DNA of 64,000 nt from Candidatus Azotimanducaceae bacterium (lineage in GTDB: Bacteria; Pseudomonadota; Gammaproteobacteria; Pseudomonadales; Azotimanducaceae), in assembly GCA_965217825.1 (NCBI GenBank), contig OZ244571.1, positions 1,248,882-1,312,881 on the forward strand, read 5' to 3'. The translations under genes were made by a program, and so were the position numbers. The notes under the pieces were generated by a model. It saw only the letters and a program-made list of their open reading frames with translations. It was not told the origin of the DNA and did no database searches. Of the stretch, positions 38,104 through 62,110 are shown in pieces. How positions within the stretch are numbered: position 1 is the first letter of the stretch; each line of letters opens with the position of its first letter.

Positions 38104-38284
38104 TTCTGTCTAGAAAATGCAAACTGGCGCAGTCGCGCCCCAACAGTAACGTTGATCTCGAACTTCGAGTACATGCTCGCGCGCGTGAAGTCCGATTTCG
38201 GGCTGGACAAGTCCCCCGGAGACCGATTTCGTGTTCTTCTCGATGGCCGAGACCGCGGAGGCGGTCAGCGCAGAGGCGGGCTGA

Positions 38285-38463
38285 CCCCGACGTTTCATCG
38301 GGCACCGCGGCCGACTCGCGCCGAGCTCACGAAGCTGTTGCACACCATCGGCCGGCGGGTGGCCCGTTTGCTCGAACGCCTTGGCCCGCTCGCGCGCGAC
38401 GCAGACAGCGACCACCTCGACTTCGAGCCCGGTGAGGCTTTCGATCGGCTCGTCGGCGCCTCG
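38285..38463 (+). mobile_element. internal 180-bp fragment of an IS91-family transposase gene
   Basis: TFHRAPRPTRAELTKLLHTIGRRVARLLERLGPLARDADSDHLDFEPGEAFDRLVGAS matches 33612-33790 and 48060-48238 at the DNA level. Confidence 0.8.
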
Positions 38464-52441: not shown

Positions 52442-52538
52442 ATATGCGCGACCTACCGTTGCGGCAAACGGTAGTCACCGCCGAGATGGTCCTCCGGGGC
52501 AACCCACCCCCGACTCGGTTCCGGCGGTCCTTGACGAC

Positions 52539-52836
52539 TCAATCGAATTGCAGTCCGCCGTTCAGATCCACGACTTCGCCGGTGATGAACCCCGCCAGCG
52601 GATACGTCAGGAATGTCACGACGTGGGCGAATTCCTCGGCCTCGCAGAATCGCCCGACCGGGATCTGCTCCAGCAGCTCCTGCCGTTGAGACTCGGTTAA
52701 CTGTTCGGTCCACCATCGGCGTCTTCACGTAGGCGGGAGCGATGCCATTGACCGTCACCCCGTCACCGGCGACCTCCCTAGCCAGAGAGAACGTCAATGC
52801 GGCCAGAGCGCCCTTGGATGTGCTGTACGCGGTGCC
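52539..52836 (-). pseudogene. short-chain dehydrogenase/reductase (FabG-like) 3' fragment, 5'-truncated and frameshifted
   Basis: YSTSKGALAALTFSLAREVAGDGVTVNGIAPAYVKTPM contains the YxxxK active-site region. After a frameshift it continues ...QELLEQIPVGRFCEAEEFAHVVTFLTYPLAGFITGEVVDLNGGLQFD*. The N-terminal half is missing at the junction with the ATPase-gene repeat. Confidence 0.6.
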
Positions 52837-53097
52837 GCCAATCGCCGCCGCGAGGCGCCGATCTACTTTTGGCGCGATGCGACTGGCCGCGAGATTGATG
52901 CGCTGATCGACCTGGGCGGCAGGCTCGTCCCCGTCGAAGTCAAATCCGGGGAGACCGTTCCCGCCGACGCGGTGCAGAACCTGGAGTGGTGGACGGGCCT
53001 TCCAGACAACCCGACCACCGGCGGACTGCTGGTCCACGGTGGCAAGACGCGGTTTCGAATCAAGGGATTCGACGTGCTGCCCTGGTTTCTCGGCTGA
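52837..53097 (+). repeat. direct repeat of the last ~260 bp of the DUF4143 ATPase gene (copy of ~28217-28478)
   Basis: Alignable by eye with about five substitutions. It ends exactly at the TGA equivalent to 28476-28478, after which the sequences diverge. Confidence 0.85.
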
Positions 53098-53120
53098 AGT
53101 CTAAAGGTCCCGGACGCCTA

Positions 53121-53585
53121 TCAGTCTGCTCGCAGTTCCTTCAGCTTGGCAACCGCCTCCGCGGGATCGGGCAGCGTGCCCCGGTAGCTTTCCGTGTGCC
53201 GCACGACACCCGCGGGATCGATGATGATGAGCGAGCGATTCACGATTCCCGCCGACTCGTTGAAGATCCCGAGCGAACGGGCGACCGCGCCGTGGGGCCA
53301 GAAGTCCGAAAGCAGCGGGTGCCGCATGCCGCCCATGGCGGTGGACCAGGCGTTCAGGGCCGGGGCAGAGTCTACGCTTAAGCCCACAAGCGCCGCGCCA
53401 GCGTCGGTGAATTGATTCAACGCACGGTTGAAATTATTGGTCTGGTTGCTTCAGCCGCCGGTGAAAGCCAGGGGAAAGGTATGCAGGACGACCCACTTAT
53501 CGCCCTTGAACTGGCTGAGCGATAGCTCCTCGCCCGCGTGGCTTCTCAAGGCGAAATCCGGGGCTTCGGCTCCGACTTCGATCAT
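53121..53585 (-). CDS. AhpE-like 1-Cys peroxiredoxin with in-frame UGA at the peroxidatic-Cys position (candidate selenoprotein; alternatively a Cys->stop pseudogene)
   Basis: Track ORFs 53451..53669 and 53121..53420 are in the same frame and separated only by a TGA (53451-53453). The joined product is MIEVGAEAPDFALR...VVLHTFPLAFTGG[UGA]SNQTNNF...LLSDFWPHGAVARSLGIFNESAGIVNRSLIIID.... The RBS GGGAGGA lies 4 nt upstream of the ATG at 53585. Confidence 0.6.
53416..53453 (-). other. UGA plus downstream hairpin (candidate bacterial SECIS)
   Basis: On the minus strand, UGA is followed by 18 nt and then UUCAAC-CGUGC-GUUGAA (6-bp stem, 5-nt G/U-containing loop). The stem is extendable by AAU/AUU after a 3x3 internal loop. 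Confidence 0.4.
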
Positions 53586-53675
53586 GGGATCCTCCCGTGT
53601 GGTTCGCTGCGAAGCATACAGGCAAAGCGTTTCCAGAGGATACGTCCGGGCGCGTCGCGACCAGATCACCCGATA

Positions 53676-54725
53676 TCAGAACGCCGGAAACACTTCCTCG
53701 GCGAACCTTCGCGCGTAGTCATAGCCGCCCTCCGACAGTGGCGGCGGCGTTGGCATCGGGTGCGGCACGATGATTTCTATCGGCAGGCCGTACCCGAGGA
53801 TGGTCTTGATCTGGTCCGTGATCGCCTGGAAGGATCCGTGCAGGACGAATGCATCGACGGCGGCGTCCGGCAGGAAGGAAACCACGTCGCCGGCGGCTTC
53901 GAGGTCCTGGGCGTGGTGGAAATCCGGCCAGACGCGCCGCTTCAGGACGGCCACGTCTTCGCCGGTCCAGGGCATGTCGATGTTGTCGAATAGCGCCCGC
54001 GAGTACTCGTAGTATCCGGCGGCGGCGGCGCGGCCGATCCGTCCCGCGCGCTCGGCATCTTCGTCGACGATGGTGTGGAAAACGCAGCCGATGCGGATTT
54101 CTTTCGGATCCCGACCTGCCTCTGCGGCGCCCGCGTGAACAGCCTCGACAGCGCGGCGCAGGTTGGTCTCGTGAACGCCGACCCGGATAAAGACGCCGTC
54201 GGCGACGCGGCCAGCCATGCGCAACGTCCTGGGACCTTGGGTGGCTACCCACACAGGCACGTGCGCGGAGTGGCGGAGCACGGCGGGTCGCGCGGCGTCG
54301 ACGGCTACCTGCTCGCCGGCACCGAGCGACCGAATAGTGACGATCGCTTCTTCGAATGCCGCCACCGTGGCGGGTCGCCTGCCCATGAGGCGGACTGCGG
54401 TATCACCCACGCCCATGCCCAATATCGTGCGTCCGGGATCCAGCCGGTCGACCGTCGCGATCGACCCGGCGATGACCGCGGGATGACGCATCACGGGGTT
54501 TTCTATCAGCGTGCCCAGCATGATGGAATGCGTCTCCCGCAAGGCTTGCGCGAGCAAGACGTACGGATCCAGTACCAGGAGCGGCGAAGAAGCAATGAAC
54601 CCGTAGTGCCAACCCAACCCTTCGAGCCGCGCCGCGTCTGCGGCGAAGCGCAGGGGCGATCGGTGATCAAGTCGATTCAGGCCGAACGCCAGGCCATCTC
54701 GAATAGTCGTGGGATTGCCGTTCAT
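53676..54725 (-). CDS. luciferase-like monooxygenase (LLM) family oxidoreductase
   Basis: The LLM pattern is present (GLGWHYGFIASS..., ILGMGVGD, VPVWVATQGPRTLRMAGRVADGVFI). The start is set at MNGNPTT (ATG 54725), which overlaps the stop of the upstream MFS gene. Confidence 0.85.
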   Translation of the reverse strand: MNGNPTTIRDGLAFGLNRLDHRSPLRFAADAARLEGLGWHYGFIASSPLLVLDPYVLLAQALRETHSIMLGTLIENPVMRHPAVIAGSIATVDRLDPGRTILGMGVGDTAVRLMGRRPATVAAFEEAIVTIRSLGAGEQVAVDAARPAVLRHSAHVPVWVATQGPRTLRMAGRVADGVFIRVGVHETNLRRAVEAVHAGAAEAGRDPKEIRIGCVFHTIVDEDAERAGRIGRAAAAGYYEYSRALFDNIDMPWTGEDVAVLKRRVWPDFHHAQDLEAAGDVVSFLPDAAVDAFVLHGSFQAITDQIKTILGYGLPIEIIVPHPMPTPPPLSEGGYDYARRFAEEVFPAF

Positions 54726-55990
54726 CTTTCCACTCCCTTTGATCCTTCGTGTCTCGCCCGGTCGGTGGCCGCTTGCCGGCGGAGCGTCTCGGGCACGAAG
54801 ACTACCAGCAAACAGATGCCCACGAAGGCCATCCCGCCGGTGGATGTGCAGGCGATGGCAAGCGACGTCAATTGCGCTACCCACCCCATGATGAAAGGTC
54901 CCACCGCCGCGCCCACGTCGCCCACCAGACGCCAGACGCCGAGAAATTCACCGCGTCCCTGCGCGGGAGACAGGTCTCCGCCGAGCGTCATGAAGATGCC
55001 GGTGCCGAAACCGTTGCCGAGCCCGGCAAGGATGCCTACCGCAGCGAAGGTCCAGAAGCTGCCAGCGAACGGCAGGGCGGCGACGCCGAGGCCCAGCAGC
55101 AGCATCGCGGGTCCCAACGCCCACCTGCGGCCGACAAGGTCGATGATCATGCCCGCGGGGTAGAACATCGCCATGTCGACCGCGGCGGAGAGGCTGAACG
55201 CCAGTCCGATTTCGGCGGCGGAGAACCCCATCTCGGCACCGATCAGCGGAATCATCAGCAAACGCCCGGCTCGCAGGAACATCAGTACGATCATGACGCT
55301 TCCAGCCGTTGCAAAGGTTCGTCTATGCGTCCCGACGACATGTGCGAGGCGGGTTGGCTCAAGCCCCTGAGCCGGTCTGGGCTGGCCTGCGAAGATCAGC
55401 ACCATCACAAGGGAAACCGCGAACAACGCGCCGGCGGCTGCAAACACGGACCGATATCCGATCAAGTCGGCACCAATACCTGCAAGCAGCGGACCAACAA
55501 GCGCCCCAGCGCGTTGCAGCCCCGCCATCAGGGAGATCACGCGGCCGCGCTGGTCGAGGCGCACCGTGTCGGTAATGAATGTCACCCTTCCGAGCACCCA
55601 GATGCCAGCACCGGCGCCGAAGCCGAGGGCAGCGAAAGAGAGCACGGGAACGCCGGTTGCGGCTGCGGGCGCAAAGGTGGCGAGCGTGGCCAACACGAGT
55701 CCCAGGATCATGACACCGCGGTCGCCGATGCGCGCCACCAACATGCCGGCGGGTACGTCCATCAACATCGTCCCGGCGCCACGCAAACCCACAATCGTGG
55801 CGGCCAACGCCGGACCGCCGCCGATTTCGAGGGCATAAAGCGGCAACATGATCTGCACGGCGTTCTGGGCGATCGCGGAGAAGAACGACGGCATGTAGAC
55901 CGGCAGGGCTATGCCGCGCATCACCGACAGGACGGTATCCCGATCACCGGGTTCCGCCGAATACGAAGTCCTTCGCCTTGGTCCTAACAT
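54722..55990 (-). CDS. MFS transporter
   Basis: 12-TM-like hydrophobic profile with an MFS loop motif (GMLVARIGDRG). The start is uncertain; the track ORF extends to 56110. Confidence 0.8.
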   Translation of the reverse strand: MLGPRRRTSYSAEPGDRDTVLSVMRGIALPVYMPSFFSAIAQNAVQIMLPLYALEIGGGPALAATIVGLRGAGTMLMDVPAGMLVARIGDRGVMILGLVLATLATFAPAAATGVPVLSFAALGFGAGAGIWVLGRVTFITDTVRLDQRGRVISLMAGLQRAGALVGPLLAGIGADLIGYRSVFAAAGALFAVSLVMVLIFAGQPRPAQGLEPTRLAHVVGTHRRTFATAGSVMIVLMFLRAGRLLMIPLIGAEMGFSAAEIGLAFSLSAAVDMAMFYPAGMIIDLVGRRWALGPAMLLLGLGVAALPFAGSFWTFAAVGILAGLGNGFGTGIFMTLGGDLSPAQGRGEFLGVWRLVGDVGAAVGPFIMGWVAQLTSLAIACTSTGGMAFVGICLLVVFVPETLRRQAATDRARHEGSKGVER

Positions 55991-61636: not shown

Positions 61637-62110
61637 CTATTCGCCGGGGGTTGGCTCGGAACCGATCCAGGCGCGGGCGCGGCGCACATGTTCCATCGGC
61701 TTAAAGATCGATGAGAAGATGTCACGCACTACGCCGTTCTCATCCAGCAGGTAGGTGACCCGCCCCGGCAGCGGTCCGGTGAAGGCACCGTAGAGTCGGC
61801 GCACCTTGTTGCCGGCGTCACTCAGGACGGGGAAGGGGAGTGCGTGATGATCGGCGAATCGCTCATGCGACGCGACTGCACCGCTATTGATGCCAACCAC
61901 TTCCGTGCCCGAGGTGACGAACTCCTCGTAGTGATCGCGGAACCCGCGCGCCTCGAGAGCACAGCCCGGAGAGTCATCCATGGGGTAGAAGAACAGCACG
62001 ACTTTTCGGCCGTGCAGGGAGGTGAGCGAAAATGTTTCTCCGCCCGCTGCGGGCAGGACAAAGTCAGGTGCTTCATCGCCGATGGCAACTTTCGTTCTAC
62101 GCACAGCCAT
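61637..62110 (-). CDS. bcp: thioredoxin-dependent thiol peroxidase (Bcp-type peroxiredoxin)
   Basis: Reads GDEAPDFVLP...GRKVVLFFYPMDDSPGCALEA...FPVLSD. The start is set at MAVRRTK. Confidence 0.85.
   Translation of the reverse strand: MAVRRTKVAIGDEAPDFVLPAAGGETFSLTSLHGRKVVLFFYPMDDSPGCALEARGFRDHYEEFVTSGTEVVGINSGAVASHERFADHHALPFPVLSDAGNKVRRLYGAFTGPLPGRVTYLLDENGVVRDIFSSIFKPMEHVRRARAWIGSEPTPGE

Follow-up and report, generated by a model that had tools for sequence, protein, structure and literature searches.

A predicted selenocysteine-containing peroxiredoxin of the AhpE subgroup in a Candidatus Azotimanducaceae genome

Gene structure and reading frame

The window analyzed here is a 64,000-nucleotide stretch of DNA (positions 1248882–1312881 of a single 4.67-Mb contig, OZ244571.1) of Candidatus Azotimanducaceae bacterium, and contains a minus-strand gene for a predicted selenocysteine (Sec)-containing peroxiredoxin. 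The frame extends from ATG 53585 to TGA 53123–53121 (155 codons including the stop), and this terminal TGA is backed by TAG 53120–53118. Its sole in-frame interruption is TGA 53453–53451 at codon 45. In the list of open reading frames (ORFs) this one frame appears as two entries, 53451..53669 (72 aa, starting at a GTG further upstream) and 53121..53420 (99 aa, starting at a TTG), and rereading the frame bears out the original prediction that only the TGA divides them. The complete coding sequence (53121..53585) is predicted to specify a 154-residue Sec-containing AhpE-type peroxiredoxin according to its frame, Pfam and PDB matches, structural model and orthologs.

Translation of the joined frame yields ...HTFPLAFTGG-U-SNQTNNFNRAL...LLSDFWPHGAV...GIFNESAGIVNR..., including the PLAFTGG-UGA-SNQ and LLSDFWPHGAV blocks noted previously, with WVVLHTFPLAFTGG and SNQTNNFNRALNQF flanking the UGA. 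The joined protein contains no cysteine residues. A ribosome-binding site (RBS; GGGAGGA, 53590..53596, minus strand), read from the sequence 4 nt before the ATG, is located as proposed, and the ATG is aligned at the start codon in 64 of 65 orthologous genes.

Protein family and predicted structure

The joined protein matches the Pfam families AhpC-TSA (PF00578; E = 7e-31, 107 bits against a cut-off of 26) and Redoxin (3e-18). None of the NCBIfam models reaches its curated cut-off, with PrxU (NF040737) scoring 60.3 bits against 270 and Prx-SUH (NF045827) 29 against 298. The top seven matches in a sequence search of the PDB are all Mycobacterium tuberculosis AhpE (Rv2238c; E = 7e-32 to 7e-31), and the next peroxiredoxin subgroup follows at E = 5e-16. 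In this alignment the codon-45 residue (U45) falls opposite the AhpE peroxidatic Cys within FPLAFTGIC, exactly the position to which the UGA had been assigned.

An AlphaFold2 model, for which 73 relatives were aligned and U was replaced by C, has a mean predicted local distance difference test score (pLDDT) of 97.1 and a predicted template modeling score of 0.92, and places residue 45 in the first turn of a helix spanning residues 43–54. The 12 best Foldseek matches in the PDB are all AhpE chains (template modeling score, TM, 0.92–0.93; root-mean-square deviation, rmsd, 1.4–1.6 Å; 152–153 columns). Across the Sec and Cys relatives there is no variation at P38, C/U45 or R117 and hardly any at T42; the UGA codon (53451..53453, minus strand) corresponds to the last residue of P38-x-x-x-T42-x-x-U45, as the orthologs and the AhpE alignment both indicate, and is interpreted as Sec. 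The protein has the domain match, the fold, the Pxxx(T/S)xxC(U) motif and the conserved Arg of a peroxiredoxin. It is closer to AhpE in both sequence and structure than to Prx1, Prx5, Prx6, PrxQ or Tpx and is assigned on these grounds to the AhpE subgroup; the earlier assignment agrees with both the sequence match (E = 7e-32) and the structural match (TM 0.93).

M. tuberculosis AhpE (PDB 1XXU, 1XVW, 4X0X), the 1-Cys peroxiredoxin that gives the subgroup its name, is ~40% identical over the full length (TM 0.93, rmsd 1.5 Å). The two proteins are in register at Cys45 and U45, both within FPLAFTG-x-C/U, share the blocks LLSDFWPHGAV and G(V/I)FNExxGxxNR, and lack a resolving cysteine. They differ in that Sec replaces Cys and Gly replaces Ile/Val before the catalytic residue, and in their hosts, which are Gammaproteobacteria and Chloroflexota for the Sec form and Actinobacteria for known AhpE. 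The experimentally characterized PrxU of Eubacterium acidaminophilum (NF040737) likewise has Sec at the peroxidatic position, but is a longer protein (233-position model) of another subgroup.

Conservation of the in-frame TGA

A scan for the sequence pattern, with each species represented by a single genome, recovers 64 orthologous loci, giving 65 genes with that of the window, and all 65 have TGA at the same codon. The 64 orthologs are 47–96% identical to the window protein and come from at least three phyla; the hosts include Candidatus Azotimanducaceae, other Pseudomonadales and Gammaproteobacteria, Ectothiorhodospiraceae, Burkholderiaceae, a 'Deltaproteobacteria' metagenome-assembled genome (MAG), and Dehalococcoidia/SAR202/Chloroflexota. 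Conserved blocks lie before (WVVLHTFPLAFTGG) and after (LLSDFWPHG) the UGA. Synonymous variation is of the coding type, and the part after the UGA is conserved as much as the part before it, contrary to the relaxed downstream half that had been raised as a possible outcome of the alignment.

The Cys/Sec pairs anticipated at this column are found among more distant homologs. The nearest orthologs all have TGA with the same hairpin (described below); Cys is confined to the less closely related AhpE proteins of Actinobacteria (FTG[IMV]C) and to a small group from soil. In the actinobacterial proteins and in the protein entry P0039 (FTGGC) the Cys is aligned with the UGA. In a maximum-likelihood tree of 60 Sec and 23 Cys AhpE rows the two forms are split by one long and well-supported branch (length 0.76; Shimodaira–Hasegawa-like approximate likelihood ratio support, SH-aLRT, 97), whereas deep branching within the Sec forms is not resolved.

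Among 400 genomes sampled from the phylum only the window's own genome has a match at E ≤ 1e-20; as this sample is otherwise empty and the scan of species genomes gave 64 loci, the gene is rare and patchy but not unique. Five of 60 other sampled genomes of the same family contain it, all five with TGA. The gene is accessory and patchily distributed, and never occurs as a Cys version within the window's own family. SelA was found in every one of five carrier genomes chosen to be diverse, versus 2 of 14 control genomes.

The protein collection searched contains dozens of clusters of 85–106 residues corresponding exactly to the part after the UGA. These fragments start at varying positions (TTG, ATG, GTG) and are gene-caller artifacts. 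Two full-length entries (P0002, P0003) have W at the UGA site, and are miscalls of TGA as Trp.

Several individual copies depart from the general pattern. A SAR202-like ortholog in a 1724-bp marine metagenome contig (L090:556–760) has TGT (Cys) at the Sec codon and TGA at the codon for Trp31, with a nearly intact hairpin (AUCAAC-CGUGC-GUUGAA); this is either a recently converted broken copy or the product of read errors in a low-coverage contig. A Cys homolog in soil metagenome sequences (L091:1633–1700, and L092) contains FTGG-TGC-TNQ and is 44% identical; 15 nt past its Cys codon, where the hairpin sits in Sec forms, is a strong hairpin with a 10-bp stem, GGAUUCCGCG-AUAACUA-CGCGGGAUUC (z = -2.4). 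This may be a fossil hairpin from a change of Sec to Cys, an idea suggested by the very similar U forms in the portion of the Global Ocean Sampling (GOS) supplement covered, or it may be due to chance. One MAG (that of locus L020) has a second, 5′-truncated copy of the gene (L077:1501–1749; residues 71–153) with the same downstream neighborhood, and a truncated second copy is likewise present in another genome (G413); these suggest duplication or rearrangement of an accessory region.

A putative SECIS hairpin

A putative selenocysteine insertion sequence (SECIS) with a 17-nt core hairpin (53416..53432, minus strand) is located within the coding region downstream of the UGA, its assignment resting on synonymous constraint and geometry. 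It consists of UUCAAC (53432–53427), the loop CGUGC (53426–53422) and GUUGAA (53421–53416), forming a 6-bp stem that begins 18 nt after the UGA, with the loop at 24 nt. The original prediction placed a hairpin here that could be extended across an internal loop. The core is where it was said to be, and the extension, a possible 3 bp across a 3x3 internal loop (53410..53435; AAU 53435–53433 with AUU 53412–53410), is present in this gene but poorly conserved, being paired in 34–74% of orthologs with weak covariation. A distal closing helix (CCAG/CUGG) around the hairpin is present in the window and was rejected, as it is not conserved.

The hairpin encodes F-N-R-A-L (codons 52–56), and codon usage across the 65 genes is close to invariant: TTC in 65/65, AAC in 61/61, CGT in 62/65, GCG in 60/60 and TTG in 61/61. 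Elsewhere in these genes, synonymous entropy at Leu, Arg and Ala columns is 1.3–2.2 bits, CTG/CTC and CGC/CGG predominate, and both TTG and CGT are minority codons. Synonymous-site entropy was used because covariation counting gave little signal in a near-invariant stem; in five-codon windows its normalized value for codons 52–56 is 0.024, the minimum of the gene, compared with a median of 0.689. This near-invariance at synonymous sites indicates selection on the RNA rather than on the protein or codon usage. Pairing of the stem is retained in 96% of cells of the ortholog alignment. The most divergent Chloroflexota orthologs have other hairpins at the same place (CCGC-AUGA-GCGG or CAUCG-UGC-GAUG), to which a 7-bp lower stem (CUCCUCG/CGAGGAG) is added.

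Bacterial SECIS elements (bSECIS) are expected to have an apical loop of 3–9 nt, an upper stem of 4–16 bp, at least one G in the first two loop positions, a distance from UGA to loop of 16–37 nt, and a minimum free energy (MFE) of -7.5 kcal/mol or lower (PMC13188914). In the core hairpin the loop is 5 nt long with a U after the G at its second position, the stem has 6 bp, and the UGA-to-loop distance is 24 nt; the energy of the core is considered in the Discussion. As in the bSECISearch consensus and its Escherichia coli fdhF prototype, it is a stem-loop within coding sequence with a 6-bp stem and a 5-nt loop containing G-U at positions 2–3, but differs in that a lower stem is not conserved in the lineage of the window and no bulged U is evident.

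Selenocysteine decoding in the host genome

All four Sec-decoding components for which a whole-genome check had been proposed are present on the host contig. The selA (3167555–3168649; 495 bits), selB (3168697–3170529; 414 bits) and tRNA-Sec (anticodon UCA; 3170567–3170660, from a tRNA scan) genes are mutually adjacent within 3167555–3170660, and selD is located at 3257417–3258325 (272 bits). The SelA, SelB and SelD matches are each above the curated cut-off. TGA is the most frequent ordinary stop, ending 2221 of the 4128 open frames of at least 300 codons, and no tRNA reading UGA other than tRNA-Sec is found in the host genome; these two observations exclude genome-wide reassignment of TGA.

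ARAGORN also reports two tRNA-like genes with two-base 'anticodons' and no assigned identity, at contig positions 1313294–1313363 (~400 nt beyond the end of the window) and 2065029–2065122, which may be pseudo-tRNAs or remnants of integration sites.

Other predicted selenoprotein genes and genomic neighborhood

Five further genes of the host genome, four of the peroxiredoxin superfamily and one SelW-like, have an in-frame TGA at a putative Sec position. Two paralogous PrxQ/BCP-like genes (contig positions 217687–218052 and 228806–229171, plus strand) encode FFPKAFTGG-U-TMQC with TGA at the peroxidatic position, and are followed 14 nt past the UGA by a strong hairpin (GGCGCUG-CGUGA-CAGCGCC). 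Their products are probably exported, and the U form and its hairpin are already in the supplement of the Sargasso Sea selenoproteome. Two paralogous Prx-like thiol:disulfide oxidoreductase genes (1609443–1609835 and 1607408–1607791, minus strand) encode W-U-P-F-C (UxxC) with a downstream hairpin CAGCUC-GUC-GAGCUG, and a SelW-like (Rdx) gene (38134–38334, plus strand) encodes C-T-S-U (CxxU) with a 7-bp stem and a GUU loop. In these five genes the loops have G-U at positions 1–2 or 2–3 and lie 21–22 nt from the UGA, to which the loop of the AhpE-like gene is comparable (positions 2–3, 24 nt). No Sec-containing formate dehydrogenase was found in a search of the host genome and the selenoproteins found are redox proteins, so the Sec system appears to be used for redox selenoproteins, a pattern reported from marine communities (PMC2398784). 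The host genome has 19 AhpC/TSA-type matches in all, and one of these, a further peroxiredoxin gene without an internal stop, is within the window (61721–62083, minus strand; 122 bits).

Upstream of the AhpE-like gene are a luciferase-like monooxygenase gene (53676–54884, minus strand) and a gene for a major facilitator superfamily transporter. Gene debris is located downstream, comprising a DUF4143 C-terminal fragment (52690–53097, plus strand) and a short-chain dehydrogenase (SDR) fragment (52453–53037, minus strand), and the closest relatives (L013, L014, L016) have both fragments too. The luciferase-like monooxygenase is shared by 6 of the 64 loci; as such neighbors are common to the closest relatives only, there is no conserved partner gene. 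A scan around the gene for promoters and terminators found no such site.

Discussion

The locus almost certainly contains, judging from sequence comparisons, a single intact gene whose internal TGA encodes Sec at the catalytic site, and we consider it very probable that the product is a Sec-containing peroxiredoxin of the AhpE subgroup. The candidate selenoprotein put forward originally thus gains support from the TGA of the orthologs, the constraint on the hairpin, the Sec machinery and the fold. Insertion of Sec is what we infer from these data: SelB carrying Sec-tRNA(Sec) would bind the 17-nt hairpin that begins 18 nt past UGA-45 and insert Sec with no termination, and the true stop would be the later TGA-TAG pair, which is not followed by such a hairpin. 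In the folded protein U45 would lie in the first turn of helix alpha2 near Thr42 and Arg117, forming the universal peroxiredoxin active site, where the selenolate would attack a hydroperoxide and be converted to a selenenic acid. Because the protein is cysteine-free an external thiol would be needed to regenerate the enzyme, as in 1-Cys peroxiredoxins. In a gammaproteobacterium the reductant is likely to be glutathione/glutaredoxin or thioredoxin; mycothiol/mycoredoxin, which reduces mycobacterial AhpE, is not expected, as the hosts are not Actinobacteria.

A number of observations weigh against this interpretation, most of them concerning the hairpin. The core is AU-rich and weak, and at -4.2 kcal/mol does not by itself reach the -7.5 kcal/mol threshold of the bacterial model; folding 63 nt with the hairpin enforced gives -8.8 kcal/mol, through helices that are not conserved. 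The hairpin is absent from the unconstrained minimum-energy folds of the 72-nt and 56-nt regions past the UGA, whose z-scores are not significant, and RNAalifold gives no consensus structure for 59 aligned SECIS regions. A scan of 53100–53650 against Rfam at a permissive E-value returns only chance snoRNA-like matches and no SECIS family, and covariation is nearly nil, the stem hardly varying. The substrate and reductant are moreover assigned purely by inference.

The gene could be read as the remains of an ordinary Cys peroxiredoxin inactivated by nonsense mutation, of which at most fragments are made, since a single substitution converts TGC or TGT to TGA, the DUF4143 and SDR fragments lie directly downstream, and the metagenomic relative L090 looks damaged. 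A dead gene would not be expected to retain a nucleotide-invariant hairpin, however, and the same TGA in 65 of 65 orthologs down to 47% identity, its presence in every relative of the family that has the gene, the purifying selection acting on each half and the preservation of start and stop codons make the chance of this negligible. It is scarcely more credible that the frame yields two products, one an N-terminal peptide of 44 residues and the other a protein of 99 residues from TTG 53420, for which the dozens of fragments of 98–101 residues among database entries could be cited. Pro38 and Thr42 precede the UGA and Arg117 follows it, such that the active site spans the UGA and separate products would be structurally senseless; the model of the joined sequence is a single AhpE-like domain (pLDDT 97), the fragment entries vary in their starts, and TTG 53420 is not preceded by a recognizable RBS.

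A somewhat larger, though still small, probability attaches to recoding of the UGA to a residue other than Sec, either Cys inserted via the Sec pathway at low selenium or Trp by near-cognate reading. Misloading of tRNA-Sec under selenium limitation is described in other systems. The W in P0002 and P0003 is output of automated gene calling and carries no biological evidence, the only tRNA with a UCA anticodon is tRNA-Sec in a genome with TGA as its main stop, and Trp at the catalytic Cys/Sec position would abolish activity. The co-occurrence of the gene with SelA and the SECIS-type hairpin also indicate SelB-dependent decoding. Incorporation of Sec at codon 45 of one intact gene is therefore the interpretation adopted here.

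Peroxiredoxins with a TxxU motif (PF00578) are an established prokaryotic selenoprotein family (PMC13188914, PMC1088965, PMC2398784), being the second most abundant in the Sargasso Sea (2005) and represented by 253 sequences in the GOS data (2008); these catalogs agree with the earlier statement that bacteria have Prx-like selenoproteins with Sec in place of the catalytic Cys. Like the catalogued proteins, which occur in marine aerobic selenoprotein-rich bacteria, the one described here has an AhpC/TSA domain and PxxxTxxU, and its coding region contains a SECIS-type hairpin just past the UGA. The catalogs differ in not separating subgroups, and most of their U forms are PrxQ/BCP-like (FPKAFTGGUTMQC). 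AhpE-like U forms (...PFAFTGGUTNQV...LLSDFWPHGAVGKAYGIFNEERG..., for example with LLSDFWPHGAV) do appear in the portion of the 2008 GOS supplement covered, so a Sec-containing AhpE-like kind is already known, and the GOS and Sargasso Sea papers do not name the subgroup of these forms. The FTGGU[ST]xQ..FNRAL clade was not found in the part of the catalogs' supplementary text covered, and a literature search gave no paper linking 'AhpE' with a selenoprotein form. AhpE is described as a very small subgroup that had previously been known from Actinobacteria alone (PMC5302317), and the peroxiredoxin atlases do not mention selenocysteine.

It is tenable, if somewhat doubtful, that FTGG-U-[ST]xQ...FNRAL defines a distinct, formally undescribed Sec-using branch of AhpE, patchily distributed across Gammaproteobacteria, a 'Deltaproteobacteria' MAG and Chloroflexota, hidden from classifications by truncation of its gene calls, and with a 17-nt SECIS core that is invariant across phyla. 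If so, the invariance would imply either horizontal transfer of the gene along with its SECIS or recognition of one minimal hairpin by the SelB proteins of distant phyla; the 17-nt hairpin, compact and strongly conserved, would be a candidate minimal SECIS element, and a cysteine-free peroxiredoxin with a single Sec would need a reductant unlike the mycothiol system.

Current understanding of selenoproteins is unchanged by these findings, and their practical value is in annotation. Most members of the clade in the protein collection searched are fragments of 85–106 residues or have Trp at the catalytic site, and owing to this truncation the enzyme seems to be missing from at least 64 species genomes in which it is very probably made. 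A Sec-containing sister clade in marine and environmental Gammaproteobacteria and SAR202/Dehalococcoidia would modestly widen the range of AhpE beyond Actinobacteria, and would provide a natural Sec/Cys pair for asking why selenium is used at the peroxidatic site.

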